Positions 4,653 to 63,381 of a stretch of DNA of 64,000 nucleotides are shown one piece after another; positions within the stretch are counted from its first letter, which is position 1, and every line of letters starts with the position of its first letter. Both the position numbers and the translations under genes were made by a program. The stretch is taken from assembly GCF_033153115.1 (NCBI RefSeq), contig NW_026889803.1, positions 26,970,001 to 27,034,000 on the forward strand. The letters are read 5' to 3'. The stretch is from Saccostrea echinata. Lineage: Eukaryota. The notes beneath the pieces are model-generated. The model had not been told where the DNA came from and searched no databases. It saw only the letters and a program-made list of their open reading frames with translations.

Positions 4653-7600
4653 TTAGTTTTCATTTTGGCATTTTTCTTTTTCAGTTATTTGAACAACTTC
4701 AAATGTATATGTCCACGAAGTGATTGTACTAATTGAAATTCTAGAAGATTTCAATACTTTCTTTCCGGAAACCTTAGACTTGCAGCCTGAGAGCATAGTT
4801 TTGTAATATTTACAAACTCTTCGGTTGCAAATGAATGCAAAAAAGATAAACAACCCCTGTGAACAATTAAATATGATAAACAAAAAGCTCATAACATGTA
4901 ACACCGTACAAATTGTAAATGTTGGTGTATCTGCAAAAGCACTAACTATCGAGGAGGCCAGACCGGAAATCCACGTGAAACCCATCATAGTTGACATGCG
5001 TACATAAAGACTGACATCAGATTTTCCGGTCACATGATTCAACGAAGATCGCCTCGTTTTGATGTTTGCAAGTTTCAAAGTTTTGCGAATGCAGTAAATA
5101 GTTTTTACAAACATTACGCTGTTGGAAAAAAGAATGAGGAGCATTGGAGAACCGAAGGCAACAAGAGCAGCCACAGGCTCCTGTATCCAACAGCCTAGGT
5201 TTTCATCCGTGGATTCCATCCTTCGAGACAATGTATTGTTGTCCAAGGTGCCACTCAAATCATGATCCACAAAACCATTTGGGGAAAGAGAGAGGGAACC
5301 GCCACCATATTTAATTTTTACATTAGGTATAATGTCTGTGTAGTCAATCACAGCACAACCAGCCACAATAAGAGCTGGTGATCCCCACGCATACAGAGCA
5401 TAACGTGGGAGGTATTTCTCTTTGCTTCTCACTCTTGTGAGGATATACTTGTTGGCAAATGTTTTATATAAGTCATACGACATAACATTCATCCAGAAGA
5501 AAGACGCCAGAAATAGGTAGTGAAGCATCATGCCTATCACTGGGCACAACCAATCTGGCTTAGGCGCCCCAGAGACAATGAAAAGTAGTTCGGCAAGAAA
5601 GAGTGCGAATGTTAGGTTAGCCGTGCTCACTCCGGGCAAATTTCTCATTTCTTTAAAAATAACATAGGTAATCAATGAAAGGAATGTGATCACAGTTGAA
5701 ATGATCCCCAAAACGAAACTTAGGTAACTCTCAGCCACGATGATATTCTTAAATTCTATTCCGCACGATGTTTTCAGAATATTCGAGGAAACGCCTTGAC
5801 TGTATATGCATATCCTTATATTGTCATGCATATCATCTACATATTCATATTTATCCTGATCAAATACTTCTCCTTCATAAAAAACCGAATTATTGTACAA
5901 TTTCTCGTACGAAGTCGAGTTCAAAGTCAATTTTGCACACTCGCCGTTTTGAATACGAGGCGTATCGCAGAGAAAAACTAAGGCGTTCATAGTTACGTTG
6001 CTTATATTTCCGAATTCACCCAACACGTAAATATAAAAATCAAACATATCCGGTCCATAGAATTTCCCTGTTTCATTCACAAATACACCGTGGACTGTTC
6101 GTCCGGTCCGACTGTCAGTTGAATTCTTCATGTCTACTTCACTTCCCTTTTTCATGATTTTCGTTCCATGGTTGCACCATTTGATAAGATGCAGTGATAC
6201 GTTATGTTGTTGCTGTTTTATTTCAGTAATCTTGAAGTCGGAGCCGTTTAATTCTAAACTAAAACTTTGAGTCCTTATCAAATGATTCATATTATCCACC
6301 ACACTAGACAAAGAAGAGCTAAATTTCCCAGTCTTTTTTATGCTTGCCAAAAGATCAAATTTAAATTCAACTGTGAACAATGATTCATCGGGGGATTTTT
6401 CTTTGGTAGTTTGTTGGTTGTCGGAAGACACATTTTTAGACACATCTTCAGTTTTTGTAGTCAATATTTCTGGAGAGAAGTCTTCGTTCTCCGTAGCTCT
6501 GTTTTTCTGGAACCGTCTTGGATGAACAATCTCTATCATCTGGGACTGTGTCGTACCGTTACGAATAGATATTGTAAGGTCTCTGATGCGACTGGAGCTC
6601 ACATTTAAGACAAAGGCAATTTCTTCAATAATCATATCCTCTGCACCGTCCTGTTCCAAAATACTCAGTTCCTCTTTAGTAGCATTAAGTCGGAATGTCA
6701 GAGACGTCATCTCATTCGCGTTTTGCAGTCGTGACAAAGAATCTTCTGAATTTAGAGATATTGGATCAGGTTGGCAGACGTTGTTTTCAAGATGGTAGCC
6801 TTCATCACATGTGACTTCACGACAGTGCCCCTTGTAATACACTTGGTTCTTTGGACAAGAGACCGTTTCAACGGGATGTGTCGTTTCCGTGCTGAATATA
6901 ATGTGTCCTTCACCATTTATTCCAAAATTTATCAGAATTTGAAACGACAAGGGCATTTTTTCTGAGCCTGGTTGAGGATTTATTGGAGCATTGCGGGCAC
7001 GGTTTTCATGGCTGCGAAGACTGGTGGGATGTTTACAGTGTTTTATAACATTTTGGTTATACGGAAAAATTTTCTTTGAACATCTCGCCATTTCATCCAT
7101 ACTTTTTAGGATATTGATAGAGGTATTCTTGAAGCCATCCATTAATTTAAGAACAGGTATGTCATTAAACTTTAAGTCAGCGGTCCAGGAACTTACATTG
7201 TGTGCTCCATGGCAACGCGAACAATAGACATTTCTGTACACGACTCCATGTAAATCTTGAACTGGGATATGCTGCAAGTCTATAACACACTTGTGCTGTT
7301 CTTCTACAAATTGTTTATGGTGACCATGACACAGCAATACGGCTTGATCATCAGTGGAGTCATGTGGACATTTATTAACCATATAAATTGGCTTAGGAGA
7401 ATACAACGGAAAGTGAATACATTTTCCAAACCTTTTGTAAACTAAATGAAAAATCAGCTCATCATAGAGGGATTCCTCGTCCGTTTCTGCGGGAGACTCC
7501 TGTTCGGCATCTTGTGGAGAAGTCGTTTTCATTTTATCTGCGCCTTTCATTCTAAGAACATCTCTGTTAAACCAAAATTGTTCATCTGGTATTTTCACGC

Positions 7601-7796
7601 TCTCATCCTCTTTTAGACCATATAGAAGTCTTTGTAACTTAATTTTCAGGATTTTCTTATTCTCATCCTGTGATTTGTTCGGCAAATCGTTTATACTGTA
7701 GGCGGTGGGTACGAATGGGTCACTGGAAATATGAAAACACTGGACGGTCACCAAAGTCAAGACAGCAAGGTACATTGTGATGAAGAGTTCATTCAT
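4653..7796 (-). CDS. Intronless class-B (secretin/adhesion/Methuselah-like) GPCR with a long Cys-containing ectodomain, ~1047 aa
   Basis: ORF 4653-7883 opens on TTG; first ATG at 7796 is followed by a signal-peptide-like hydrophobic stretch. Ectodomain has CP...PV...VYRNVYCSRCHG. 7TM motifs: MRNLPG, LHYLFLASFFWMNVMSYD, YALYAWGSP, GCWI, MGFTWI, NCSQGLFIFFAFIC. Confidence 0.88.
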   Translation of the reverse strand: MNELFITMYLAVLTLVTVQCFHISSDPFVPTAYSINDLPNKSQDENKKILKIKLQRLLYGLKEDESVKIPDEQFWFNRDVLRMKGADKMKTTSPQDAEQESPAETDEESLYDELIFHLVYKRFGKCIHFPLYSPKPIYMVNKCPHDSTDDQAVLLCHGHHKQFVEEQHKCVIDLQHIPVQDLHGVVYRNVYCSRCHGAHNVSSWTADLKFNDIPVLKLMDGFKNTSINILKSMDEMARCSKKIFPYNQNVIKHCKHPTSLRSHENRARNAPINPQPGSEKMPLSFQILINFGINGEGHIIFSTETTHPVETVSCPKNQVYYKGHCREVTCDEGYHLENNVCQPDPISLNSEDSLSRLQNANEMTSLTFRLNATKEELSILEQDGAEDMIIEEIAFVLNVSSSRIRDLTISIRNGTTQSQMIEIVHPRRFQKNRATENEDFSPEILTTKTEDVSKNVSSDNQQTTKEKSPDESLFTVEFKFDLLASIKKTGKFSSSLSSVVDNMNHLIRTQSFSLELNGSDFKITEIKQQQHNVSLHLIKWCNHGTKIMKKGSEVDMKNSTDSRTGRTVHGVFVNETGKFYGPDMFDFYIYVLGEFGNISNVTMNALVFLCDTPRIQNGECAKLTLNSTSYEKLYNNSVFYEGEVFDQDKYEYVDDMHDNIRICIYSQGVSSNILKTSCGIEFKNIIVAESYLSFVLGIISTVITFLSLITYVIFKEMRNLPGVSTANLTFALFLAELLFIVSGAPKPDWLCPVIGMMLHYLFLASFFWMNVMSYDLYKTFANKYILTRVRSKEKYLPRYALYAWGSPALIVAGCAVIDYTDIIPNVKIKYGGGSLSLSPNGFVDHDLSGTLDNNTLSRRMESTDENLGCWIQEPVAALVAFGSPMLLILFSNSVMFVKTIYCIRKTLKLANIKTRRSSLNHVTGKSDVSLYVRMSTMMGFTWISGLASSIVSAFADTPTFTICTVLHVMSFLFIIFNCSQGLFIFFAFICNRRVCKYYKTMLSGCKSKVSGKKVLKSSRISISTITSWTYTFEVVQITEKEKCQNEN

Positions 7797-10700
7797 GCTG
7801 ACAGCAGCTACTATGAATGTTGTGGTGATGCATCGCGAAAAAACAATACTGTTTTCCAAAATTAAACAAGTCTGAGTTCTCAATCGCTGGCTTGATTATA
7901 GAAAAAGATTGACACTTGGCAGAGTTTATCTACAGTTTGAACATATGGCGAACTCTCACAAATTTGTCGCCCTACGAATTTGTCCAATAAAATGTTTATG
8001 TCAATCCGGCAGGTAAATGACAAGTCCTTTTGTTATCAGAGGTAGTTTTGCAATCATTCGGACTTATTGTTACGGATTACAGCAACAATCACTGACTCTT
8101 AAGATAACTTTGTTTGCAGTTGGTATTAGAATCAGAGGGGAATGTTAAGTGTCCATTTATTCACTTCCTTCCAAAACCCCAGTAGCAGCTTTTAAGACCC
8201 TTGATTAGGGATACGGCGACACTGATGATAGTGTATTAAGAAACAAACTCTCGGGGACGAAAACCTTTGGTATGGAAGAATTTCATTGAAAAAGTTCGAA
8301 AAGCACGAAAGAGCAAAATATTATAGATTGGAAATTAGTCGTATCTCCTCGGCAATGATAATGGTTAAAATACACCTTATCCCATCCCTTTAGCCCATCC
8401 CTTCAGACTCAAGAACAATCAGTGAAGTGCACATGCGTGCTGTCTTTGACTTGAAGAAAGTCAAGATCAGCATTGTTGAACAAGGAGAAGCATCCCAGCT
8501 AAAATGGCATGCAAACATTTACGCAAAAAAGGGCTTGTGGACAGAGAAACACTGCATGATAAAAACGTTATACATTGTAAATATTTATATTTACAATACA
8601 TTTTGATTTTATGCATTAAGTGCGGTATACTGTAGTATTTTTTTTTTTTTGGCTAATTCTTGAATTTAATTTTTTTTATCATAAATGTCATTAAATATAA
8701 AGAAAAAAATGTAATTGGCCATTACTTCGAATTACATAAACTAGTAATTATAATCAATATTATCTGCTGCAATTAGAAAATTTTATAATGGCACGTGCGT
8801 TAGAAAAAAAACACAACTTTTTGGGGGGTATCTCTGACAGTAATTAAATAATTTAATATTGTATTTAAAAAAAACCTTGGGGGAATTGTTATGTAAATTT
8901 TTAATTTACCGGGAGACAGAAAAAAAAGTTGTACATTCAAAATTTACAACACCATAGAGCTGAATACTATAAATGTATATATGTAAAGATCTATGCAGAA
9001 CGTTCAATAAACCATTGGTGTCACCTGCTTGCGAACATGCTGATGCTACATTTTCTGTTACCATTTTAGAATCGTCAAAATAATGAATATTAATTCCATA
9101 GCACTAATATAAAATAATGAAATACTCATTGTTGATGATTCGCACTGATTACGGAAGCCCCATCTAGTGACATTTCATTATCAACAATCAATTTAAAGAG
9201 GTACGCATCTGAAAGTATTGTAATGTCAATTTTTCATGAAGTATATCTACTATGATAAAAAATAAAAATGCTATAGAGAAATATCGGTGACACATGCGTT
9301 ATCTCTTAGTGAAAGATATTTGAACTTGACCTATTTGTACTTGGAAAAGTATGAAATATTGATTTAAGCTACTGCTGTTTCAAAGAAAATATTATAAACA
9401 TGACAATACGTTTTATGTAAATGAATATCCAAGGATACTATTAATAGTTTTGTTTAAAAAAAATCACTTTTGATGTCTAAAATATGAGTCATGACATTTT
9501 TGCACTTAAAAATAAGAAAATTTAAGTTTATGTTTCTAAAATTTAGTGAAGAAGTTAAGTCATTTTAAAAAATTCGGCATGAATATTATTGCTACATCTT
9601 CTATTTTGTATATCTAGAACAAAAACATGGGGTCACATTCCACTTTATCAAGTTGTGGAGGTAATAAATAAATTTTAATGAAAAAAAAAAATGAAATTAT
9701 TTTTCCAGAATTTTTGTGAATTTAAGCCTTGTGTATTTTGATAAAACATCCATTGGTTTATTTTCAAATTCGATAAACTAGAGTTAAATCTCTACTATTT
9801 GTCTGATGTCTGAAAAAATAGTTGTGTGATTACTTCTTTTCAGGAGATGTTTAAAAGCCAATTAAAAAAAATTAAAATAAGCAAATCTGTATGTATTTCT
9901 TGCTTGAAATCCCGCACAAAAAATAATCCCCAAGAAAACACCTTTAAAAAGCATTTGACTTTTTTTCTTTTAATAAAATTGTTATGTTTTAGATATCACT
10001 ATCTTTATGAATATGAAGATAAATGTTAACTTTGGAATCCTAATCGGAGCATTCTTCCTTATGTGTTTTATTCTCTATTTTACATTTTCAGAACATTTGT
10101 GAAACAATCAGATTTAAAGTACATCTCGTTGGATCCTGATATTTAAAGTCTTAAACCTTTTTTCAAGTATATTTTTAGTTTCTACAAACATAGTTTAATT
10201 AAAAATCAAATCGAAAAATGGAGGTCAATATGCTTCTTTTGGTGCTACAGTACATTTAATATGACTTTTGTCTTAATCAAAAATCACATCTTCGACGTTT
10301 TCTCTCCAACGTTTTTATCCAAATAAATCATGGAACAAAATAAACTATTGGTCTATTAAAAAAAGACACGTTAAAATTGTGACCAAGAAAAAGTTTCAAA
10401 TTGCTTCGTATAATCAATTATCTGACCTTTCTGCACTCACAATATGTGATTTTTCTGGCATTAAAAATTTAACAAGCAAGAAAATTATTTTAAAGTCTTA
10501 AACTTTTGCTGAATTTAAGCAGATTGATCAAAGTTATCTTATATATATTCAGAAAAGAAAAACAAAAGTGGGGGTCTATGATGTAAATTTTTAGATATTA
10601 TTAGAATTAATTTTATGTTAAAATTGGCTCAATTTTTTCCTGGACTTTCAGAATATATTTTCTATACTTGTCACAATATGATGAAAGAATTCATAAGAAA

Positions 10701-13700
10701 TAATTTTAATAGATATTTCAGAACCAGCATAAAACATTTCACTGTAAAAAAAAAAAACAACAAACAAACAAACAAAAACAGCTGTTTGCAACCAGCATGG
10801 AAAAATAGGAATCTAAACTTAACAGTGCTGTATATATTTCTAAAAAAAAACTTCCACCACAAAATTTAGTTCCTGGCTTGATCCTATTTGAATGGAATTT
10901 AATCGCGTTTTTTCATTGGATATAGTTTAATTTTCATTGTAGAATCCAGATTTAATGTTAGAACTTAAAATGATGCAGAATTTTAGAAATAAAGGTCCAG
11001 ACCAAAATCTGCTCAAAAGCTCAGGATCGAACTGCAAACATGTGATCTACAAAGGAAACATTGCCTAAATAATTTGCACTTGAATATAAGAACGATTTCA
11101 CAGATACTAAAACTATTAACAAAGTTGAAAAATGAAAGGTGGGGAATTGCACGCACAAGTATCAAAATAATTGGTTTTACTTTATTCAGTCAATGCAACC
11201 TTAGGCAATACAGACCATCAGTATAGAAGATTAATATGATTATACAAGACACATGGGTACAGCCCACTAATTGTTTTCCCATAGGCGGCAATGTTAACAT
11301 TTCTTCACATAGCAATGTCCCTAATTTTCGTTCAGCATTGAGTGACCCCTCAAATCAAAGCACATCAAGTTGTCTTTCCTTGGTTAAAATCTCGAGGTGG
11401 CATGTCAGATTCGTTTTCCGGCAAAATGCGTCTGTCTGCGTTAACCTCTGAAAATGAAAGTGAAAGTAGGGGATTTCAAGACTTCTCACTGGTGTTATAA
11501 TACATAAAATAATTCTGCTGATCTTCTTGATAAATTACATCTGCCAAGCTTTTTTGCAAGGGAACATACTCCTTATCAACAAGTATGAGGCTCAGTTTAA
11601 TACCTTATCACAGTTTTTTTTACTCAGGTCTGCAAATTAAAAAACTTGTAATTTTTTCTGCACTACTTTCTTCTCCTACCGATTCTAAAAATAATTAGAG
11701 GTATGTACCCAATATGAAAAGAATTTTCTGGATTTTACAACATTTAACATCATAAGTCATACTACAAACTATGTAGTGACATTATGCCAAACTTCAGGAA
11801 AATTCAGTCATTAATAAAGATTTTACAGCATGCACAGTTCTATATGCAAAATTCTTTTAAAATGCTTCCATCTAGCCACAACTGCACCCAAATTTTAAGT
11901 CATCGGTTAGCCTATTAATGTACTTATACCATTTTAATTCTCTTTCATAATTTTAAATACATCAAGCAAAATCATAATCAAGCACTCATACGGGTCCATT
12001 TCTCTTATTTTAAAAAATCAATGCATTTTTGCACAAAATTTTATATCCCTCACCCTTGAATTCATTGTTTCTCCATGATTGACAAAAAAATTAAGTTTAC
12101 AAATACCCCGAAAGTAGTAAAAATAGAAAGTACTGATTATTTCCTGTCCATTGATGCATCATTCAGGAAAATTGGTATAGGAATAAAGAAGTTATAAGCC
12201 CTTATATTCTTGTAAACATTCATCTGTTTCAAAGCAATTTTTACGCCAATGCAAGGTCACTCATCTATGACGCCATAATGACATCATAATAATGGATTGC
12301 TTATTACACATGTAGTGTTACTTTTCCCATACTTTTAATTAAAGTTGAAATTAGAACTAAAATATTCATTATAACTATAAAATAACAAAAATACTTGCAT
12401 GAGCAGATCAAATAAATAGTCTACAGAAAATGTTTTGTTTCCATGGTAACCATTTTGTAATTTGTAGGAAAATGAAAGAGAACTTTGAAAGTTTTGAATT
12501 TCCTTACAAGTCGCTCATTCTGACTGACAAATATTAAAGAAATTTCAACTCTTATATTTTTTAATCTTAATATTTTATCATACACAACACTATGAATGTA
12601 ACTATTTTGAAATTCTCTTTAAAACATATTAGCTGTAAAATATATAGCATACATGTACAGATTAGTTTGATGTTCACTTTCATTGCTCAAATATTCATTT
12701 AAAATCTACATTTACTAAGCTTTAACACCCCCCCCCCTCCTCCCGCACACACACACACATACACACAAAGAAGCTTTAGAAAATTCAACTTACATATTAA
12801 AAGTACTGCCATCATTTTATATATGAAGACTCAAGCTGTGTTCAAATGAGTTTGTTTTTCCTGACTGATAGTTTTAAACACCATCTGCATGAACCTCAAA
12901 GTTAACCTGTATCACCATGAACCTAAAAAAAAATCAATTTAAAAAATGGTGCAATAATTAATCAGCATCAAAAAGCACCTAAAACATTCACAGACAGACA
13001 TCAAACACACACAATCCTACAACATTCCCTGATGCCCTTAATTGGTTGATATCAATTGAAAATTATGAATTTGCACTGATTAGTCTCAGCATTGTTAAAT
13101 TACATGTAAATTAATAATACAGGTAAAAAGCATGTAACTGACAATAATTATACATTAGACAAATACATGTAATCCAGTTAATAAAATATAAAAAAAAATG
13201 TTAGTGTGCATGTTCACACACACACTGCTTAACTTCTACACAACTGTAGCCTGACCGACTTCTTTGAAAAAATGCACATGTATGTCCTCGTTCATGTAAT
13301 TCTATTCCATGAAAATAAAAGTTTTCATTTACAAATATTGTAATAAAGCATGGAAACCTCTTTTTTTCTTTACCTCTTTCATAAAATGACAAATGCATAT
13401 CACCTACATACTGCAAGACTCTGCATTAGGTAGCATAGCTGCACTAAGCAGTGTTGATAACTTACTGCCATTCTACTTTCACTTTGACCTTGAACTTCAC
13501 TGAATACTGATTCCGACCTCATTTCTGAACTTTTGTGTATTGATGATAAACAATAGTGGTGGATGTACTTCTAAAATAATTGTTCCTTTTCTAAATATCT
13601 ATTAATGGCTCAAAATTAATAAATTGTATAGAATCGATACATTTAATTTACATGCTACATGTGTACACAATGGGAGATATGCATATATGCGCATAAGCTG

Positions 13701-16198
13701 TCTGTTCCTAAAAAGGGGGGGGGGGGTATTAACAAATCGATTTGTTTCAAAATATGTATAAACAAATTAAAATTTGCTTCTTTCATAAATTTAAACAATT
13801 GGAAATGATAGTAAACACCGAGTTCAAAACAAAGTAAAGATCTATGAGAATTTTCACTTACCAATAGGCTTCACATATTGGGTACAGCCCACTAATTGTT
13901 TTCCCATAGGCGGCAATGTTAACATTTCTTCACATAGCAATGTCCCTAATTTTCGTTCAGCATTGAGTGACCCCTCAAATCAAAGCACATCAAGTTGTCT
14001 TTCCTTGGTTAAAATCTCGAGGTGGCATGTCAGATTCGTTTTCCGGCAAAATGCGTCTGTCTGCGTTAACCTCTGAAAATGAAAGTGAAAGTAGGGGATT
14101 TCAAGACTTCTCACTGGTGTTATAATACATAAAATAATTCTGCTGATCTTCTTGATAAATTACATCTGCCAAGCTTTTTTGCAAGGGAACATACTCCTTA
14201 TCATCAAGTATGAGGCTCAGTTTAATACCTTATCACAGTTTTTTTTACTCAGGTCTGCAAATTAAAAAACTTGTAATTTTTTCTGCACTACTTTCTTCTC
14301 CTACCGATTCTAAAAATAATTAGAGGTATGTACCCAATATGAAAAGAATTTTCTGGATTTTACAACATTTAACATCATAAGTCATACTACAAACTATGTA
14401 GTGACATTATGCCAAACTTCAGGAAAATTCAGTCATTAATAAAGATTTTACAGCATGCACAGTTCTATATGCAAAATTCTTTTAAAATGCTTCCATCTAG
14501 CCACAACTGCACCCAAATTTTAAGTCATCGGTTAGCCTATTAATGTACTTATACCATTTTAATTCTCTTTCATAATTTTAAATACATCAAGCAAAATCAT
14601 AATCAAGCACTCATACGGGTCCATTTCTCTTATTTTAAAAAATCAATGCATTTTTGCACAAAATTTTATATCCCTCACCCTTGAATTCATTGTTTCTCCA
14701 TGATTGACAAAAAAATTAAGTTTACAAATACCCCGAAAGTAGTAAAAATAGAAAGTACTGATTATTTCCTGTCCATTGATGCATCATTCAGGAAAATTGG
14801 TATAGGAATAAAGAAGTTATAAGCCCTTATATTCTTGTAAACATTCATCTGTTTCAAAGCAATTTTTACGCCAATGCAAGGTCACTCATCTATGACGCCA
14901 TAATGACATCATAATAATGGATTGCTTATTACACATGTAGTGTTACTTTTCCCATACTTTTAATTAAAGTTGAAATTAGAACTAAAATATTCATTATAAC
15001 TATAAAATAACAAAAATACTTGCATGAGCAGATCAAATAAATAGTCTACAGAAAATGTTTTGTTTCCATGGTAACCATTTTGTAATTTGTAGGAAAATGA
15101 AAGAGAACTTTGAAAGTTTTGAATTTCCTTACAAGTCGCTCATTCTGACTGACAAATATTAAAGAAATTTCAACTCTTATATTTTTTAATCTTAATATTT
15201 TATCATACACAACACTATGAATGTAACTATTTTGAAATTCTCTTTAAAACATATTAGCTGTAAAATATATAGCATACATGTACAGATTAGTTTGATGTTC
15301 ACTTTCATTGCTCAAATATTCATTTAAAATCTACATTTACTAAGCTTTAACACCCCCCCCCCCCTCCTCCCGCACACACACACACATACACACAAAGAAG
15401 CTTTAGAAAATTCAACTTACATATTAAAAGTACTGCCATCATTTTATATATGAAGACTCAAGCTGTGTTCAAATGAGTTTGTTTTTCCTGACTGATAGTT
15501 TTAAACACCATCTGCATGAACCTCAAAGTTAACCTGTATCACCATGAACCTAAAAAAAAATCAATTTAAAAAATGGTGCAATAATTAATCAGCATCAAAA
15601 AGCACCTAAAACATTCACAGACAGACATCAAACACACACAATCCTACAACATTCCCTGATGCCCTTAATTGGTTGATATCAATTGAAAATTATGAATTTG
15701 CACTGATTAGTCTCAGCATTGTTAAATTACATGTAAATTAATAATACAGGTAAAAAGCATGTAACTGACAATAATTATACATTAGACAAATACATGTAAT
15801 CCAGTTAATAAAATATAAAAAAAAATGTTAGTGTGCATGTTCACACACACACTGCTTAACTTCTACACAACTGTAGCCTGACCGACTTCTTTGAAAAAAT
15901 GCACATGTATGTCCTCGTTCATGTAATTCTATTCCATGAAAATAAAAGTTTTCATTTACAAATATTGTAATAAAGCATGGAAACCTCTTTTTTTCTTTAC
16001 CTCTTTCATAAAATGACAAATGCATATCACCTACATACTACACTTAATGGTTCCGGTTATGGATGCATGGTTGGTGAAAAACTAGCCAGCGTTGTTTGTC
16101 CCTTTCTGTGGAATGAATGTAGATTGGTATAAAGGTATTTAATAATACAGAGATTCTACCTTGCGTACAAATTTACATACAGTAGATTGAAGTTCAAT

Positions 16199-18219
16199 AT
16201 GGGTGAAAGTGTTAAATCTATAAACATTAACGATATCGAGGACAGAGATGGCGCCAAAATCAAAATGGCGGGGGTGAGAAGTTTACCTTTTAAAGTTAAT
16301 CTAGATGAGGTGGACTTGTCTGTGAGAAGTATATACAAGGAATACCCACAACAGTGCTTACCTGACAATTTTAAAAATCCATCAGGACCTAAAGCAAAGA
16401 AACTTGAATATGAAAAGATAGACACTTCGTTATATGAACCGTCAGCGCACATGGTGGCGTTTCGGATTACGAGGGAGAGATTGGAAGCATGGATAAGAGC
16501 TCTGGGTGTATTGTATTATGAACATTATGGAAAGATGGAAGGATCATACTTAGTAGACTGGTATGACGAACCAAATGAATGGCTTGACGAAGGTAACAAA
16601 TCAATCTGCATTGGATTGTTGAAAGAACCACATTTACTGTACAAAGTTACTTTGTTTGTTAACACAGGAGTAATCCAAGCACAAGGGTTACAACACGAGA
16701 TCTTTGCATGCAATGATTTCCCAATGCTTCTTTCCCTGGTCAATGCTATTTGCGACTATGAAAGATCTACTAGAGCTGTTCACAATGAGGTAGCTGACAA
16801 TGTGTTTGAGGACACTGATGATGAAACCTAATATTAAAAACAACAAACGAAGCTATGTCAAAGGACCAAATGGAAGAAACAGGTTTGTCATCCTCAGATA
16901 ATACTGAAACTCCCCAAGTTACATACAAGGATTTCGAAAAATTACAGGAAATTTTTGTTGAATCGTTGTCCAAGTTGACTGAAACACAAACAACACTAGT
17001 ATCGAGGGTGGAGAAAAGTCTGTCTGATTCATTACAGAAAGTGACCAGAACTGTAAACAATTTGCAGACCCAGTTCAATACAATGAAATCTTTGAAGGAT
17101 AAGCAGACCAATGACACAAACTCAGATAAACTTCAGTCTCATATAGCTGATATTGAAAAACAATTATATCAGACACGCACAGATAAATACAACTTAACAG
17201 TAGAAAATGCGAGATTGGAATCCCTGCTGAAAGCAGAAAAAGCAAGAAACAACACCATGGATGAGACATTGAGAAGAGAAGTCAAGAATTTGAAACATGA
17301 AAATGAACACTTGTCTGAAAAACTTAACACAAAAAATGAGGAAAATGATCAACTCATGGATGAAAATAAATCACTGAGAAAAAATGTTGATAACCAGTTC
17401 AATGAAATTTTGTCCCTTAAATCTCAGCTCTCTAGCATGTTCATGAGTGGTGGAAAGGACACTGAAACCAGCAGGGCAAAAGAGATGACAGACCTGGTAG
17501 TCAGTGCTGGGAAGAATAAAAAACCAATGGCCCTGTTAATAGGTACTTCTAACGTGAATGGCATAAAAGAGGATAAACTTACATCAGACGTAAACGTTAC
17601 TAAAGTAACAGCTTTTACTCTGGATGAAACAAAGAATGTTATCATTAACTCTTCGTGCATACCTGATGTAGTAGTTCTTCATTCTCTAACAAATGATGTT
17701 AGAAATATTAGTCCTGAAAAATGTGCCGAGAAACTACAAGGGGTGGTTGAGGTTATTAAACAGAAGTGGAAGGACGTTCACACCATCATATCTCTAACCA
17801 CACCAAGAGAAGACAACTCCTTGCACAAGGTAAACTGTGAGATCCTGGATGGGATAATAAAGAGAGACTACATGGAGTATCCTGGAGTTTATATTTCTGA
17901 CAACGAAAACATGTGGCATGGACATCTACCTACAATCGAACTACTGAATCCCAATGACAAATTTCACTTGTCTCCGAAGGGAACATCCATATTAGCGTCC
18001 AACATGAAGAGAGCAATGCACACCGTATTAAAAATCGGCAACAACTCCAAGGGATATACAAATAAGTATCGAAATAGGTCGAACTACAACAACCAGGAAA
18101 AGTATTTCCAGGCGAATAACCGTAACAATTACTATAGGAGCAGTTTAAGCTGGAATCATCAGTACCGGAACGATAATTATAACCGCCAACTTAGAAAAAG
18201 TCCGAACTATTTTCGTTGA
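16199..18219 (+). CDS. LINE ORF1: N-terminal domain + coiled coil + SGNH/GDSL esterase-like domain, split by a 1-nt frameshift at ~16824-16826
   Basis: Adding one A to gatgaaaccta fuses ORFs 16187-16831 and 16855-18219 (…DDENLILKTTNEAMSK…). Esterase blocks ALLIGTSN, HSLTND, DKFHLSPKG. Confidence 0.8.
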
Positions 18220-18368
18220 GCATGGAAAGGGCCATCAACACAAGGGTGGTTAATTGTAATTCAAGTTGTTCTGTAGATCTGAAACTGGTGAACCTTAAAA
18301 TTATAACTTAGTTAATTTTCTTTATTTGTATAAATTTTATCACAGTAGAATACAGTTAAGGGTCCAAA

Positions 18369-21300
18369 ATGGACAAGTATATGTATAAAAATAGCATAAA
18401 AATTTGTTATTGGAATGTTGGAGGAATTTTTACACAGGGTGAGAATAAACTAAATGACAAATTATTTTTGAAGGAGGTGAAAAACTATGATATTATTATA
18501 TTAAGTGAAACACATGTTGGGTATAATACCAATCTTTTTATTGATGGTTTTACATACTTCCCTGTATGTAGGGACATGTCTGCAAATGGAAGATTTTATG
18601 GGGGAATTGGCATTTTTCGTAAAAATTGTATTAAGGAACATATTAAGTTATTACCAGGTACCCAGAAAGATTTTCAGTGGATTAAGATAGAAAAAAGGTT
18701 TTTTAATCTTCAAAATGATATTTATCTTTGTGCATGTTACATTCCACCTTCGAATTCAACTTACTTTCAAAAGTTAAATTATGATGTTATTGAAATTATT
18801 GAGAAAGATGTTAATAAGTTTAAGTATAAGGGGGAAATTATGATTTGTGGGGATATGAATGCACGCACTGCTTCATCAGATGATTTTATAGAACATGATG
18901 ATGTAAGGTACCTTCCTCTTTGTAAAACATATAAGATTGATGATAATTTTTGTAAACGTAGTAATCGTGATGTCATTTTAAATGAAAGAGGTAAAGAATT
19001 GATTGATTTTTGTATTAGTAATCAGTTGAGAATTATTAATGGTAGATGTATGGGGGATATTTTTGGTGATTACACATGTTTTAACACACATGGTCAAAGC
19101 ACAGTTGACTACCTTGTTGCAAGTGAACACTTAGTTAAACAAATTCTATATTTTAGGGTATCAAATTTTATCCCAACTCTTTCTGATTGTCACTGTAAAA
19201 TATCATGGGAAGTTTTAGCAAAATTTAAGGAAATTAATTCAAATGCTACTAATGCCAGAACCTTGCATCCCGCCCCTCAAAATTTTAAATGGAATGAAGA
19301 TTCCCCTATTAAATTTCAGATGGCTCTAAGTTCAGATAGGATACAAGAAAAAATCAAGTCTTTTTTAGATTCTTTTATTACAGAATCTACTTCTACTGAT
19401 ATCGAGAAAAAGGCAGAAGAATTCAATGACATTATCATAACTGCTGCTAACATGTCATTAAATAAGCCAGGTCATAAAAGTAAGAATATTAAAAAGCATA
19501 AAAATAAAAAATGGTTTGATTCAGACTTGCAAACAATGCGCCGTAGATTGATTGCGCATGGAAGAATTTATAGCATATTTCCAAAGGATCCAGTTGTTAA
19601 GAATCATTACTACAGACTTCTTAGAGAGTACAATAAATTAAGAAAATTTAAGCGTAAAAATTTCCAAAACTCCATTCTAAATCAACTTGATGCACTTCAA
19701 AATAAACAACCAAAACAATATTGGAAATTAATTAATGACCTAAAAGATAATAATAAAGACAATTCTGCTGCAAACATAGATTCTGAAACGTGGGTAAATC
19801 ATTTTCGCAACCTTCATTCTGTTTGTGATAACTCTTTTAAATCAAGGATACAAGAGCTAGATTCAATTTTGGCTGACATGGAGGAAAATCCATCCTTTAA
19901 TGAACTGGATTTCAAGATTTCACATAAGGAAATTGTAGATGCAATAGCAAATTTAAAATATGGAAAAGCCAAGGGGCTTGATTTGATATCTAATGAAATG
20001 TTAAAACATAGTCAGTCCTATTTACTCTCCTGTATACATAAGCTCTTTAATAGTTGTTTCACATATGGTATTTATCCTCAAACTTGGAGTAACGGGTACA
20101 TAAGTCCAATTTTTAAGTCTGAGGATCCAAACAACCCTGCAAATTATAGGGGTATTACAATTACCAGCACACTTGGCAAGTTATTCAACAGCATTCTGAA
20201 CTCTAGATTAGATAAATTTCTTAAAGAACATAATCTAATTCACCAATCTCAAATGGGTTTTACCAAAGATGCAAGAACATCTGATCATCTATTTGTGCTA
20301 AGATGTTTAATTGATAAATACTGTAGCTTAAAAGAAGGAAGACTATATGCTTGTTTTATTGACTTTCATAAAGCTTTTGACAGTGTTATCCACACAGGAT
20401 TAAAGCTCAAATTACTTCACATGAATGTTGGATCTAAATTTTATAATATTATAAGTAATATATATAAGAATAGTCAGGCATGTGTGAAAATTGGAAGGTT
20501 CTTCTCGGATCCATTTCCAATAGCTATAGGTGTCCGTCAAGGGGATAACTTGAGCCCTTCTTTATTTAAAATATTTATAAATGATTTTCCATCATATTTA
20601 GATTCATGTATTGATGAAGTATCACTTCAGACAAAAACTGTTAACTGTTTAATGTATGCAGATGACATTGTTATTTTATCAGCATCAGCTCAAGGTATAC
20701 AAGCAAGACTTTCTAAACTTGAAAAGTATTGCTCTGATTGGTGTTTAAAGGTAAACATTCAAAAAACTAAAGTCATGATCTTTAATAAAGCTGGTCGTAA
20801 TTTCACGCAAAAACTAATGTTTCAAAATAATAGGATAGACTGTGTATCTAGGTACAAATATCTTGGAGTTCACCTAACTGCATCTGGAAGTTTTCATGTA
20901 GCAAGATCAGAGCTTTATAAAAAGGCGTTAAAAGCATATTATAAACTGAGAAATGATTTTATTAATTTGAATCCTGGGATTAAAACGAGTATACATGTAT
21001 TTGACTCTACTATTAAACCAATTCTTTTGTATAATGCAGAGGTGTGGGGTGCAAGTAATATCAATACTAAAAGATTCCTAAAATGCCAAAAGTTAGAAGT
21101 TGAAGACTGTTTCAGAAATCTACTTTGTGAAAGAATACACCTTAAATTCTGTAAATATATTCTTGGTGTTCATAAGAAAAGTACAAATTTTGCAGTATTG
21201 TCTGAATTGGGAAGGTTCCCCCTGCATTATGATATTGTCAAATTGTTAATCAAAAGTTGGTATAGATTTGAAAATTTGTCCACAGAATTTCCTTTACTTA

Positions 21301-21897
21301 AAGATGCATATGAATGTAGTAAAAATCTTTATGTACATGGAAAGAACTCATGGTTCGCATTTGTACAGAAATTAAGAAATATACTGAATATCAAAGATGA
21401 AGTAATTTGTTATGGGAAGCATAAATTTAAGTCACTCTGTCATAAAACCATATTAGATTATTATATAAAAAATTGGTATACAAGTCAACAAAGTTATACT
21501 GATGGTAAATTAAGCACATATGTAAAACTCAAACAAAATTGGGGTTATGAGAATTATTTATCAGTAGTTAAAAATTTTCATCACAGAAAATCTCTATGTA
21601 AATTAAGAATTTCTTGTCACAGATTGCAAATTGAAGTGGGAAGATTTACCAACATCCCTCGTGAAGATCGATTATGCAATAGATGTAACTCTAACAGTGT
21701 AGATGATGAAACTCATTTTCTCATAACATGTAAAAAAATATGATCATCAAAGAAAAGAAATTTTTCAATCAATTAAAAGTAAATTTCCCAATTTCTCGGC
21801 ATTAGATGATGAACAAAAACTTTTTTGGTTACTCAATACTGAAGACAAAGAAACTCTTAATTCTGTGGGCAAATTCATAAATGATAACATGTTGTAG
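18369..21897 (+). CDS. LINE ORF2: APE endonuclease + reverse transcriptase + C-terminal CCHC; extra A in the run at 21732-21738 truncates it at 21743, reconstructed stop 21897
   Basis: APE motifs WNVGG, LSETH, GDMNA, VDY, SDCH; RT motifs NYRGIT, FIDFHKAFDSV, GVRQGDNLSP, YADD, YKYLG; CNRC...H...C knuckle. Shifted frame continues YDHQRKEIF...KFINDNML*. Confidence 0.93.
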
Positions 21898-23776
21898 TAG
21901 TCATACAGTTTTATATATAGTATTCCCTTTAACTGAAATAGTACAATATTATTGTTGAAATGAGTAATGTCATTTACAAGTTGTTATACTATCCATTGGC
22001 ATATCTTTTCTTTATTATTGTAATAATTTCATACTTGTCTGTTATGGGCTCTAAATTAGAAAATAAATGTTCTGTTCTGTTCTGTACTGCAAGACTCTGC
22101 ATTAGGTAGCATAGCTGCACTAAGCAGTGTTGATAACTTACTGCCATTCTACTTTCACTTTGACCTTGAACTTCACTGAATACTGATTCCGACCTCATTT
22201 CTGAACTTTTGTGTATTGATGATAAACAATAGTGGTGGATGTACTTCTAAAATAATTGTTCCTTTTCTAAATATCTATTAATGGCTCAAAATTAATAAAT
22301 TGTATAGAATCGATACATTTAATTTACATGCTACATGTGTACACAATGGGAGATATGCATATATGCGCATAAGCTGTCTGTTCCTAAAAAGGGGGGGGGG
22401 GTATTAACAAATCGATTTGTTTCAAAATATGTATAAACAAATTAAAATTTGCTTCTTTCATAAATTTAAACAATTGGAAATGATAGTAAACACCGAGTTC
22501 AAAACAAAGTAAAGATCTATGAGAATTTTCACTTACCAATAGGCTTCACATATTGGGTACAGCCCACTAATTGTTTTCCCATAGGCGGCAATGTTAACAT
22601 TTCTTCACATAGCAATGTCCCTAATTTTCGTTCAGCATTGAGTGACCCCTCAAATCAAAGCACATCAAGTTGTCTTTCCTTGGTTAAAATCTCGAGGTGG
22701 CATGTCAGATTCGTTTTCCGGCAAAATGCGTCTGTCTGCGTTAACCTCTGAAAATGAAAGTGAAAGTAGGGGATTTCAAGACTTCTCACTGGTGTTATAA
22801 TACATAAAATAATTCTGCTGATCTTCTTGATAAATTACATCTGCCAAGCTTTTTTGCAAGGGAACATACTCCTTATCAACAAGTATGAGGCTCAGTTTAA
22901 TACCTTATCACAGTTTTTTTTTACTCAGGTCTGCAAATTAAAAAACTTGTAATTTTTTCTGCACTACTTTCTTCTCCTACCGATTCTAAAAATAATTAGA
23001 GGTATGTACCCACATTGTAATAATTTTATTCTGAAGAAGTCTAAAACTGGGACAGACACCCCTGATGAGACGTTCCACAGTTCCATTTTCTATACAGAGA
23101 AAGATGAATATGCATATCATTATGTAATAGAATACAATTGTTCAACAATTTGTAGCAATGCTATTAAATCCTAATATAAACGTGTAGAGTGGAAAATCAA
23201 ACTAATACAAATATATTTGGTTTAACTGACAATTTAGCATTATTTGACATAAGAACATATGAATATATTTCTCCAAACCGACCGGCGTGGATATGTGTTG
23301 TGAACCAATAACTGTAGTAATTTAAATGAACTAGGTGATTTATAATAATACTAATTTATGTTTTTTTTTTCTTAAATTCAAATATTTAGGACACTGAAGA
23401 ATGAAGTGAAATTACATCACGTGCTCAGTTTATGCTAGAACCCGACCAATTTTCTCGATCTGCATCAGATCACATCGTAAGAAGATTTTTTTCAAAATGC
23501 AATTTTTAGTTTTTAATAGTTTACACCAAAATTACATCATTTTCATTTTTCTTTGTATAAGAATCCTGTAATTGCAAACATTGTTCCAAACTCCAAGAAT
23601 ATTTTTACAAAAGAATAAATGTAACCATTCAATTTCAAGTGATTCATGAAAACCCAAAATTTCACTTCTACCGTATAAGATTTTACATTTCTATAAGAAA
23701 TAACACTTCCAACATAAACAGATTATCAGAGTTGACACGTCTCTGTTGAATTCAAACTTTTGTATCAGCGACATAG

Positions 23777-24129: not shown

Positions 24130-26250
24130 CTTGCTGGCATTTCTATTGAGTAGCATTACTGTTAAAATTCAAGCATAATCCAAATTAATTGAAAGAGTCT
24201 ACAAGATTTCTTTGTCGTAAGTCCATGTATTTGTACCTTCCGTCTCTCTTTTTCTGAATGCTAAAATTTTGGATTCTGCAGTGTTGACAGTCAAATTTCA
24301 AGAAGAAACATATCCATGTAAAGCGTAAAGCATATATATATTCTGTCGCTCCTTTAGCGTGTAAGTAATGGATATATGCCGAATACTGTTCTATATGTAA
24401 AATTATCAGACTGTTTGAGGCCCGTTAGGGCCGAAAACAGTCTGATAATTTTACATATAGAATTGTATGAGGCGTATATCTTACTTAAAACATTGCTATT
24501 TAAATGTCCAAAAGTTACCTGGAGGAGTCCGATAATTACACAATAGGAGTTCAGGCATCAATAGTTTTCTACCTGAAACCATCTAATAAGTAGACAAAAG
24601 AAAAGAGAAAGTTTTTTTTTCTTTAGACAGTAAAATCAGTGAGTGAACTCTTTTGTTTCATTCATTCATTCAATGGCAGTCGTTTGGCTTAGCAGGAACT
24701 ATGGACAGTGGTCAGGTGATGAAGGATTTTTTTTATGATTCGGAATAATTTTTTTCATTAAGTGCGTTTGAGATTGATACAGATAAAGTGTTGGATAATA
24801 TCTTCAAAATGCATTTGAAGTAAAAATGCGGATTTTTATCTAAAATTTCAATTGGATGACATAATGAAAATCTTGGATTTCAAAAGTGAGGTCATTGACG
24901 AACAAATTTCGTTAAATGAAGAGATTCGCAGACTGGTTCTTTATCAGAAATGGATTTAAATTGGCTTATTCACGGTGCTGTATCGAAAACGCTTTGCAAA
25001 AACCGATTAGAAAGTGTTAGTTTTGAGGAAGGTTAAAACTCCAGCTTCTTCTTGGATTTGCTATTTTTAACAACATAATTTCCTCACGTTCGCTTTCCCG
25101 GAATTTTTCTCCCTAAATTAATTTTTGGTTTCTGGACAAATTAAACCTTGATTTCACTCTAGTTGTTGTTTTTTACTGTCCGATTTTGTTATCACTGCCG
25201 TCCGATAATATATTATTGGACTGTTAATTATTATTATCGGACGGCTACAGGTAAATTTTTAGACTGCAAGAACAAAGGCATGACGTCACAGCAATGTTTT
25301 AAGTGAATATTACGATGCATCAAGACAAACATATTCAGTTCCGTTTATTCTACGGATGGACAATTATGTTTGATGAAATGATTTTTCAAGTCGTTGACAT
25401 ACATATTGATTAGTATAGGTGATAGTGCTTCCCCTGTAATAGCCCAGTGTTTACAGGAAACTCCTAGGATATATAACTTGCATTCTTGACAAAGACACGT
25501 TCACCAATGTAGAGCGATCCAGTTATCAGTTTAGACCATAATTTTTTTTTCTGTTAATTTTATCAAACGTTTTCTATATTCCATAAACAGCAATGTAAAC
25601 CTGTTTCGTATATGGGTTCACCCCCCTTCTTTTTCTTTCCACAGAAAAAGAAGGGATGGCCGCATATACGAAACAACAGCCTGTGAAAACATTGTCTGCT
25701 ATTTAACTTTTGTGATATTAAATTTTGAAGCGCAAACATTGCATCTGTAGTGGAGAAGCCATGCATCCTGAAATCCAAATTGTGCGTTAGTGATAATATC
25801 TTCATTGAAGTTCCATCATTTTTCGTTTAGAATTGATTTGAATAGCTTTCCTAGAGTACCTGTGATGCTGATACCTCTGTAGTTTCCGGGATCATTAGTC
25901 TTTCCTTTTTGTGTATTGGAATGATAACTGCTTTTAACCATGATGATGGAAATACTAGTATACCAGAATTTTTAAAAATGTTGAAAAGAAACACTAAAAT
26001 TGGGAGAATTATGTCGCAGAAAAGAGAAATATTCATCGATTTATTTGTCGTTTCCTGCAGGTTTTATACAAGATTCTTCTTTTGGAGTGATTTCCGTTTC
26101 CAAAAGTTCAGATACAGGACTTTTAGTATCCTTAAAATAAACGATAGAAACATACAAGGATGTTGAACTTTTGATGCTGAAATGTTTAAAACTAACTAAA
26201 AAGTAGCTTTGAAGAATTTCTCCAAACAAAACAGAGTACCTCATTATATG
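24130..26250 (-). pseudogene. Old degenerate LINE RT fragment, interrupted by the 943-bp element at 24365-25307
   Basis: Minus-strand remnants WLKAVIIPIHKK, GFSTTDAMFALQNLI, GLLQGEALSPILINMYVNDL, then on the far side of the insertion LTVNTAESKILAFRK. Confidence 0.75.
24365..25307 (+). mobile_element. 943-bp non-autonomous hairpin-ended DNA element (Crypton/Helentron-like architecture), copy 1
   Basis: ~120-nt terminal hairpin 24365-24484; 15-bp subterminal inverted pair acttaaaacattgct/agcaatgttttaagt; no clear TSD (AA/TT site); inverted copy at 29240-30182. Confidence 0.8.
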
Positions 26251-51100: not shown

Positions 51101-54100
51101 AGGCATATCTCATCAAATTTTTTCTAGTTAGTGTGCATCCCAAGATCAATATCAATGCAAGTTTGGTTTGGGTAGGACTTACAGTTCCAAAAATAGTCCA
51201 GTCAGTTTATCATGAAACTTCAAACTCATTGCAACACAGTTTCTTTTGTTTTAAATAAACTCTAGAATGCTCAAAATAAATAAAATCTTACAAAATTGGA
51301 TGACCGGAAAGCATATTATTTGGGGTTCATAAATTTTCTATGAAAATAACCATGGAAAGGGGCATAACTCTTGTCAATTTAGTAGATTTTGGTTAAAATT
51401 TTGGTGCATTTTTCTAACCTGAATAAAGAGGAAATGAATTAAACTGTGTAAAATGACATTTATAGATGCAATAAAGCCTTTTATATCCAGCAAAAAACAT
51501 TTTTATAGATGTGTTTAGGCTTATTCAGAGTGTATGTTTCATTTATTTTCCCCATAATGATAAAATTTTAGGGCAGACTGTTATCAAAAATTCTGTCTCT
51601 AAATTTTTATGGATATGTGCTTTTTTATTATATTTTAGTAAATATGTACTAAATGAAATGATCTGTGCTTACTAAATCTTAGTCGAACAAAAATTTATTT
51701 TTTTTATTCTTTTTTAAATTCTGTGATCATTATATATCTATATTTAAAAAATGCTATACAGCTGAACTTCGATATCTCGAACACGGATATCCCGTTTTTT
51801 GGGGGGTCCCATCCAGTATGAAATAACAAGGTTTAACTGTGCATTTCCAAATTACCAAATAGTATGAAATTAAATTCAAAATGGCCATTTCAAATTCATA
51901 TTATTTACATGAAAAAATGATCTATTAAACTGTTTCAGAAAAGTTTAAATCAGAATTAAATTTCAGGAAAAACTGAAATTTTCTTTTAATATTGCTTCAG
52001 CAAAACATTGGATGCATTTGAAGAGTTATACCCCTTTTCTATAGTAATTCCAATGGCTAATTAAATCATGCCTAAGTTATGCTTTCTGCCCATTAGATAT
52101 TCTTAGATTTTTTTGCTGCAAAATTTTGTATATGTTAGATTTAATTTATAACAAAATAATTTATGTTGCAATTAGTTTGATGTTGGGCCCATATACTGGA
52201 CTGGTGTCGGGTGGTTACGCTCCGATTCCGTGTTCGACCCGCGTGGTTACGACCCAAGTGGTTTCGACCTACTCTAATATATATCCCTACATGTCAATAC
52301 CTGAGTACAGGGGTATACACTGTGCGGTAAACAAATGGATATCCGGTAGCTGTATATTGTATGGCTTCAGAGATGTGCGTGTCAATAGGTAGTTGTTTCC
52401 GTATGTGTAGTCAACATGCAGGTTTCCTAACATTTTTTTCTACTATCGCGGAGCATGAATGTTGATAAATTTGATTTAGTAATGAATTATATTTAAACAG
52501 TTTTCCATAAAAATTAATCAAATACTTCTTCAAATGTACCGTGATCACATATGCACTGTCTGAACAATGTACGTTTCTCCTAATTTAATTACATAAGATA
52601 ATTAACACAAATATACGTGGTCAATATAAAAAAATTGTAGACGAAAAAATAAAATGTAAAACTTTTAAAAGTGTTAATTAATTTCGTTCCGAAGCAATTA
52701 ATTGTTAATTAATTGCTTTGGAACGAAACCACTCGGGTCGAACATGGATTTGTGTCGAAACCACGCAGGTGGAACAAGTCATCGGAACGTAACCACCCGC
52801 ATTCTACTGGACTAAAAATTTAACCTGTCCATTCATCCTGAAAATATAGGTCAGATCCAGCATCCAAAGAAAGTCTGGTAATGTGCATCCCTAGATGCAT
52901 TATCCCTGCAAGTTTGGTATAGCTAGGGCTTATAGTTACTTGGGAATGGACCTGTATCAAAATCTTCAACTTGTTCATCAAATGGAAAATGTAGATCAGT
53001 TCCAGCATCCAAAGTAAGTCTGGTAATGTGATTCCTTAGATGCATCATCCTTTACGATTGGCCCAGGTAGGGCTTATTGTTACTTTGGAATGGGCTCGGT
53101 TTGAAATCTATAACCTGGTCACTTATCTGGAAAATGTAGGTCAGTTCCAACATCCGGAGCAAGCCCGATACTGTATATCCCTAGATGCATCATTCATGAA
53201 TTTTAGGTCCAGGGAGGGCTTATAGTTACTTGGGAATGGATTTGCTCCAAAAACTTAAACCTGGTCACTCATCTGGAAAATGTAGGTCAGATCCAGCATC
53301 CAATGCATGTCTGTTAGTGTGCAACCTTAGATGCATCATCCATGCTAGTTTGGTCCAGGATTCCAGGTAGGCTTTATAGTACCTATGCAATGAACTTGCT
53401 GCTAAAACTTTAACTGGTATGTTAATGCCAATGCTGGGGGTATAGCAAAAGCTCATCAACTTCATCAAGGTGAGCTTAAAATCAATCAATTTTATTTCGC
53501 AAATGGTGCTTTTCGTGATGAGTTCTTTAGTATATATACAAATTTACAGTAATCTGAGTTTGAGGCCTATGGACGAAATTGCTAACCATATCATATCAAT
53601 CAGTTTACACATAATATTATATAGAAATGAGTTATTTGATAGAAAAATCTCTTGCAAAAATTTGTGATTTCTTCAATGTTTCAACAATCTTAAGAATGTA
53701 TGAAATAATTTGCATTTTAAAATTAAAACTTTTTTATTTTTATTTTTAATTTTTAAATTTTTTCTCTTTCAGAAATATTCCCGTACATAAGTAAACATAA
53801 AAATAATCTGAAATAAAGTGCTTTACTCCAATTCTGTCTTTTAGCGTCTCTACATACCTGAAGAGTGGCCAGTCTGGGACTAACTGGGTTGTCTCCCTCC
53901 ACCTTTAAGTTCTCACTAATTGACATTAAATCCTAATGGAAAAGAAAAAATATTTTATGAAATTTAAGTTATTGGTAAAGGCAGTTTGAAATTTTGATTT
54001 CAGACTTGTTAGATTAAGCTATTTCTCATTGTTCCCTTAATTAGCTAGATAAAATGAAAACTTTGGGCTCAAGTAGGTCATAAACACAAAATTACATGAT

Positions 54101-62626: not shown

Positions 62627-63025
62627 GTTAGTTTTACTACATTACCTTGATGATATAGAAACTTACCACAGTACCAAGGTAGTGTAGCTACCATACCATC
62701 ATAATACAGAAGCTTCCCACAAAACCAGGCTAGTGTAGCCACTACCACAGTACCAGGTATAACGATTTATCAGAGTACCATGTATAGCCACTTACTAAAC
62801 TACCAGGTATAAACACTTACCACAGTAACAGATATAGCTACACAGTACATGTACGAAATATTTCCACTTATCACAATACCAGATATACATGTATCTACTT
62901 ACCATATTGGAATAGTACCAGATATAGCCACTTACCAGAGTGCCAGGTATAGCCACTTACCACAGTACCAAGTATATTTATTTACCATATTACCAAGTAT
63001 ATCCACTTACCACAGTGCCAGGTAT
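62618..63025. repeat. ~25-bp minisatellite (ccacagtaccaggtatagccactta) starting at the exon-2 donor site
   Basis: About 15 diverged units; the first overlaps the exon end aacagtaccag|gttag. Confidence 0.8.
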
Positions 63026-63031
63026 TATTAG

Positions 63032-63381
63032 TTATCCAGGTCCAATCAAGGGTGTATGGGGATTTACCCCGGGTTTTTTTCAATACACCCTGAGGCCAAA
63101 GTAATCCCTACACCCTTGATTGGACCTGGATAAAGAATTTATTTCCTATGTACCCAAATAAATTCTTTGTAAACAAGTCCAATCAACTGTGTTTCAAGCT
63201 ATCGATAAGATTTACTACGTCCTACAATGCATCGTGACGTCATATTATTGCTTTTTATCATAGAGAAACTATGCATTGTGATGTCACGTTTTTTATCCCA
63301 GGCTCAAGTCGGGTGTGTGGAAATTTACACCCGACTTTGTAACCAATCAAAGCTCGTGTTACAAGCTACATAGGAAATAAA
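63032..63381 (+). mobile_element. 350-bp hairpin-ended element (same architecture as the 943-bp element, different sequence)
   Basis: Hairpin ttatccaggtccaatcaagggtgta...tacacccttgattggacctggataa (63032-63133), then inverted pair tttatttcctatgta / tacataggaaataaa. Confidence 0.7.

Follow-up and report, generated by a model that had tools for sequence, protein, structure and literature searches.

What kind of element is an array in which three long direct repeats alternate with two non-coding segments, the whole bounded by a short duplication? Such an array lies in the 64,000-nucleotide stretch of Saccostrea echinata DNA analysed here (contig NW_026889803.1, positions 26,970,001 to 27,034,000; hereafter, the window). 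The original prediction, made from the letters alone, described it as an unclassified mobile unit of the form R-I-R, where R is the repeat and I the segment between repeats, with junctions resembling recombination sites. Our analysis points, with a probability of roughly 0.9, to a gene-less DNA transposon of the KolobokP type that is present as a tandem dimer, (LTDR-INT)2-LTDR (R corresponding to the LTDR and I to the INT). It was likely mobilized in trans by a KolobokP transposase, likely doubled in place, and likely received a nested LINE later.

Anatomy of the array

The R-I-R-I-R array was found where it had been predicted, with repeats of 456, 456, and 457 bp, and its ACAT bounds were confirmed (Table 1). 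The window is free of Ns. The duplication is exactly 4 bp long: only 1 of the 11 lengths tested matched, with a chance of about 0.7% given the flank composition. R1 and R2 are separated by a single substitution, at R position 325, where the base of R2 is absent from both outer copies, and R3 has one additional T. The prediction of two near-identical 2.17-kb I segments held for the first (2,169 bp) and, once the LINE is removed, for the second (2,170 bp); as it stands, the second I occupies 14336-22554, or 8,219 bp, on account of the nested LINE, which the prediction does not mention. The differences between the two segments are confined to two homopolymer runs, one of C and one of G, and over 2,625 bp the two units show one substitution (0.04%). 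An empty site reconstructed from the coordinates resembled no other sequence in the window, and the longest stop-free frame over its junction was 55 aa, giving no evidence of an exon.

Table 1. Coordinates of the array components and of the recurrent 13-mer, as window positions
Feature	Position	Strand	Description
ACAT target-site duplication, left copy	11251-11254		4 bp
R1 (LTDR 1)	11255-11710	+	456 bp; GG...CC; imperfect TIR 15/18
I1 (INT 1)	11711-13879	+	2,169 bp; non-coding; tips AATATG ... CATATT
R2 (LTDR 2)	13880-14335	+	456 bp; middle repeat common to both units; one substitution vs R1 and R3
INT 2, left part	14336-16039	+	1,704 bp
Nested LINE	16040-22084	+	6,045 bp
INT 2, right part	22089-22554	+	466 bp
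R3 (LTDR 3)	22555-23011	+	457 bp
ACAT target-site duplication, right copy	23012-23015		4 bp
13-mer AAAGTGAAAGTAG	11457-11469, 14082, 22757	+	One per LTDR; candidate cis-element
13-mer AAAGTGAAAGTAG, inverted	13473, 22149	-	One per INT

The array had been predicted to lack any ORF. This is correct for R and I themselves, the longest stop-free frame in I reaching 74 aa, and incorrect for the second I as it stands, which holds a LINE frame of 1,127 aa. Pfam searches of I gave no match in any of the six frames read through with X, and revealed no transposase or nuclease remnant at E<=0.1. Rfam gave no match over 11000-23300, and no tRNA was found in the window. The LINE frame, at 18360-21743, encodes EN-RT and matches Pfam RVT_1 (E 4.2e-33) and Exo_endo_phos; its end, at 21743, adjoins an A run that is shorter by one base in two contigs from public data. 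The 5' coding region of the LINE lies in two frames, 16133-16831 and 16825-18219, split near 16825, and neither has a Pfam match. The tail is short, with GTTCT repeats, and the element is apparently full-length. TACT flanks the LINE on both sides (16036-16039; 22085-22088), possibly as its TSD or else as microhomology. We take its ORF1 to be esterase-like and the element, presumably, to be CR1/RTEX-like. It is present in only one of the two INTs and is an ordinary LINE, unrelated to its host transposon.

Other features of the window lie on either side of the array. On the minus strand, 4656-7895 is an uninterrupted frame of 1,080 aa with a 7tm_2 match (secretin/adhesion GPCR; E 8.4e-21). Two 949-bp arms (24362-25310 and 29237-30185), 100% complementary and 3,926 bp apart, each have a 53-bp hairpin near the outer end, and could represent a single foldback-like element or, alternatively, a young element present in two inverted copies around possible host exons. 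Nested inverted repeats at 34345-37212 form a foldback-like structure of about 2.9 kb with arms that are 86-99% complementary. The interval 37894-40163 holds an element of 2.27 kb whose inverted ends are 50 bp long and in which a 21-bp subterminal repeat forms arrays in both orientations. At 41231-42504, 45866-46591, 52814-53413, and 62654-63050, the sequence is tandemly repeated, the period being about 324, 145, 145, and 25 bp, respectively.

Repeat ends and assignment to KolobokP

Every R begins with GGGTACA and has GG...CC ends, of the RR..YY form, together with an imperfect TIR of its own (15/18 and 19/23 matching bases); random pairs of 18-mers taken from R reach 15/18 once in 200,000. 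A 13-bp motif in inverted orientation had been reported at each inner R/I junction, and it is indeed present at all four. It is, however, a composite, 7 bp being the start of the TIR (the only part of the TIR noticed earlier) and 6 bp the AT-rich tips of I. Given this composition and the imperfect inversion in relatives, we rejected the motif as a recombinase site. The host junctions had likewise been thought to cut through it; R starts at GGGTACA and the remaining 6 bp belong to I, so these junctions coincide exactly with the transposon ends, as in any TIR element, and no site is cut.

Kojima and Bao described 228 KolobokP families in 2022, mostly from bivalves (PMC9587614). In the available parts of that paper, LTDRs of about 450 or 660 bp flank the INT. 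Each LTDR has its own TIR, which is short, perfect or imperfect, and has 5'-RR and YY-3' ends, and the TSDs are 3-5 bp long. The paper reports solo repeats as well as (LTDR-INT)n-LTDR multimers, in which neighboring units share an LTDR and the outer TSD is likewise found. Non-autonomous KolobokP elements of Crassostrea gigas have monomers of about 1.7-3.3 kb without coding capacity (PMC9587614). The array shows the same combination: LTDRs of 456, 456, and 457 bp, TIRs with GG...CC ends, a 4-bp TSD (at a single locus), a multimer with n=2 (as read from the assembly), LTDR homology (judged by eye), and no coding capacity at a monomer length of 3,081 bp. An autonomous KolobokP does not fit, as R and I lack coding capacity. 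Because architecture, repeat length, TIR, TSD, multimer form, and LTDR sequence homology all agree, we assign the element to KolobokP as a non-autonomous member. The prediction of a mobile unit of the form R-I-R holds, and the DDE transposase partner that it had expected, with a tyrosine recombinase as its alternative, fits the assignment.

The unit is no longer unclassified, as R is homologous to two published LTDRs of C. gigas; the element is described at the level of the lineage, and an identical family was not found. Homology to C. gigas families is in keeping with an oyster source. Identities were counted by eye and cover 261 of the 456 positions; the middle 195, visibly more diverged, were left out of the counts. 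The non-autonomous KolobokP-N1_CGi has an LTDR of 455 bp, a TIR of 16 bp, a TSD of 4 bp, and a monomer of 3,053 bp (PMC9587614). R agrees with its LTDR at 163 of 210 positions in the 5' part once a single gap is allowed, and the 3' end has 46 matches out of 51. The INTs share collinear patches at matching offsets, including 30 of 37 positions near INT position 557-561 and the 13-mer of Table 1, whose distance to the right end is about 395 bp. That INT starts with AATAT, as here, and ends with AATAT where ours ends with CATATT, which makes the 13-bp junction inversion imperfect in N1_CGi. With an LTDR identity of only about 78% and divergence in the LTDR middle and most of the INT, the two are distinct families. 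The autonomous KolobokP-7_CGi (LTDR 456 bp, TSD 4 bp, length 4,333 bp), for which a transposase is entered, agrees with R at 163 of the first 210 positions in ungapped register and at 42 of the last 51, again by eye, and the first six bases of its INT are identical to those of I; unlike R and I, it codes for protein. More distantly, KolobokP-4N1_CorFlu as well as KolobokP-7N2_CorFlu of Corbicula fluminea are non-autonomous and form many multimers, dimers included, as here, whereas their LTDRs, of 473 and 664 bp, have other sequences.

None of the four junction 13-mers occurs in the four supplements of PMC9587614, where line breaks can hide matches. Among six shorter motifs, four were absent from the available supplement text and the other two occurred six times, the four passages shown being internal rather than termini; the single line there beginning with 'gggtac' was internal as well and marked no terminus. 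Because no exact match was found among the available consensus sequences of PMC9587614, the family is probably new and distinct from the published KolobokP set, Repbase entries after 2022 lying outside the comparison. The literature searched held no primary description of such elements besides PMC9587614.

Related copies and alternative readings

The public data comprised four runs from one sample of an organism given under a code, in which 13-19% of the words were present. A contig of 1,106 bases crosses an R/I junction and differs from the array at 35 letters (about 3%), possibly a difference between populations or species. Pieces of R appeared at depths of 47-222, whereas most of the remaining pieces lay at 2-20; these depths do not give a copy number. 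Some contigs joined R to unrelated flanks, and others held the I-end/R junction following an internal deletion. Overall, these sequences suggest a dispersed, multi-copy family with deletion variants. Contig joints corresponding to window positions 11447/12794 and 15547/22535 suggest internally deleted relatives of the element. A further joint lies at window position 13878, where a deep contig (depth 47) connects the start of R with 500 bases of different sequence; these may represent a further type of INT or else an insertion into a different repeat. A metagenome scan with a conserved 19-mer returned 14 loci, all of them seed-only matches (19-25 bp) that we took as chance. Neither an autonomous partner nor a solo R nor an empty site appeared in these contigs or in the scan.

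We considered whether the array could be a tandem of non-autonomous LTR retrotransposons (TRIM/LARD) or an element moved by a tyrosine recombinase with site-specific junctions. A non-coding core within long direct repeats and a 4-bp duplication would suit either, and tandem TRIM arrays are known (PMC9587614); in these, as in bacterial composite transposons (IS26-type translocatable units), neighboring units share direct repeats, and solo repeats and arrays arise by recombination. An IS composite transposon, however, has a gene inside its repeat, which R lacks. The array also departs from TRIM and other LTR elements in having GG..CC rather than TG..CA ends and, as had been predicted, in lacking a PBS and a PPT: no TGG directly follows R (none within 20 nt on the plus strand; on the minus strand only at offset 16), and no purine tract lies beside R (purines 6/15 and 4/15). 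The 18-bp TIR and the direct homology to KolobokP LTDRs argue against both versions, and the prediction was right to set the element apart from LTR/TRIM. As for a tyrosine recombinase, the plain direct repeats carry TIRs and are bounded by a 4-bp TSD. Tyrosine-recombinase elements such as DIRS, Ngaro, and Crypton normally have no TSD and have split or inverted terminal repeats. Moreover, relatives whose INTs end in AATAT do not keep the perfect 13-bp inversion (PMC9587614). We regard this whole class of explanation as extremely improbable.

Two further readings keep the KolobokP family and question only the dimer. The assembly may have written two haplotypes, with and without the LINE, in tandem through a shared R; the INTs, which have no substitutions between them and whose only differences are the homopolymer lengths and the LINE, would fit such an error, and in the public data (13-19% word coverage) no read or contig extends across the array, nor any contig across a host junction. 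Against it stand the private substitution of R2, the window without Ns, and the fact that KolobokP dimers with intact TSDs are common, with 5 and 7 of them in two clam families (PMC9587614, Table 3), leaving an artefact very unlikely. Alternatively, the dimer could have transposed ready-made from a donor multimer elsewhere by means of its two outermost TIRs. Any two TIRs of a multimer could be used (PMC9587614), and the TSD fits this route equally well, but a near-identical donor array would be needed, which was not seen in the sequences covered, and the doubling step would merely be shifted to another locus; we find such a transfer unlikely. Doubling of a single KolobokP insertion in place remains our preferred reading of the dimer.

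Origin of the dimer and a recurrent 13-mer

Insertion would have begun when the outer GG...CC TIRs were recognized by a KolobokP DDD/E transposase provided by another locus of the genome; a cut staggered by 4 bases would then give the ACAT duplication. The extra LTDR-INT unit may have been added by unequal crossover between the LTDRs of sister chromatids or, alternatively, by recombination that returned an LTDR-INT circle to an LTDR, perhaps with help from an autonomous relative's His-Me nuclease. Crossover and circle re-entry each keep the TSD unchanged (PMC9587614). The transposase and unit-addition steps follow the model of PMC9587614; the timing of the doubling and of the LINE is our own reading. 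According to the available text of a 2026 review, the nuclease-induced crossover model still awaits experimental confirmation (PMC13565253). Since the units differ by 0.04% within the array and by about 3% from the outside copy, a local doubling is favored over a fusion of two independent copies. The same comparison favors doubling in place, and we infer that it was very recent. Amplification by recombination between R copies, which the prediction had proposed, is likewise the probable source of the array. The LINE would have arrived after the doubling, unless the crossover took place between LINE-bearing and LINE-free alleles. A simple sister crossover does not predict the private base of R2, which a point mutation or a sequencing error explains.

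Within the window, and allowing at most one mismatch, AAAGTGAAAGTAG occurs five times, always inside the element; 0.24 occurrences were expected, and five were reached in none of 100 shuffles. The five occurrences are copies of two independent sites. We take the word to resemble IRF/PRDM1-type sites. In the available text of supplement 3 of PMC9587614 it is found five times, in two related clam LTDRs and in three INTs near or at the 3' end, and, when line breaks are bridged, it also appears in the LTDR of 7_CGi and the INT of N1_CGi. Its layout, with one copy in the LTDR and an inverted one near the right end of the INT, matches that of the C. gigas relatives, and the word recurs in distant clam and mussel families; in the LTDR of KolobokP-4N1_CorFlu it stands in the opposite orientation to the array's. 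We found no discussion of it in the available parts of PMC9587614. These matches tentatively suggest a cis-element common to KolobokP lineages, such as a promoter element or a site for an element protein, kept even by gene-less families, a proposal that we consider doubtful. Alternatively, the word could belong to promoters in these genomes generally and not be specific to the element.

If AAAGTGAAAGTAG is such a cis-element, it would, together with the self-complementary INT tips, help explain how inner ends are told from outer ends. The element itself adds a young family to repeat libraries, which is of modest use and counts for little as a discovery. If our reading of the array is correct, the LINE-marked dimer would provide a natural tag that separates unequal crossover from circle re-entry. 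With the LINE marking one INT and a single base marking the middle LTDR, allele surveys could test the as yet unconfirmed models of KolobokP multimer formation.
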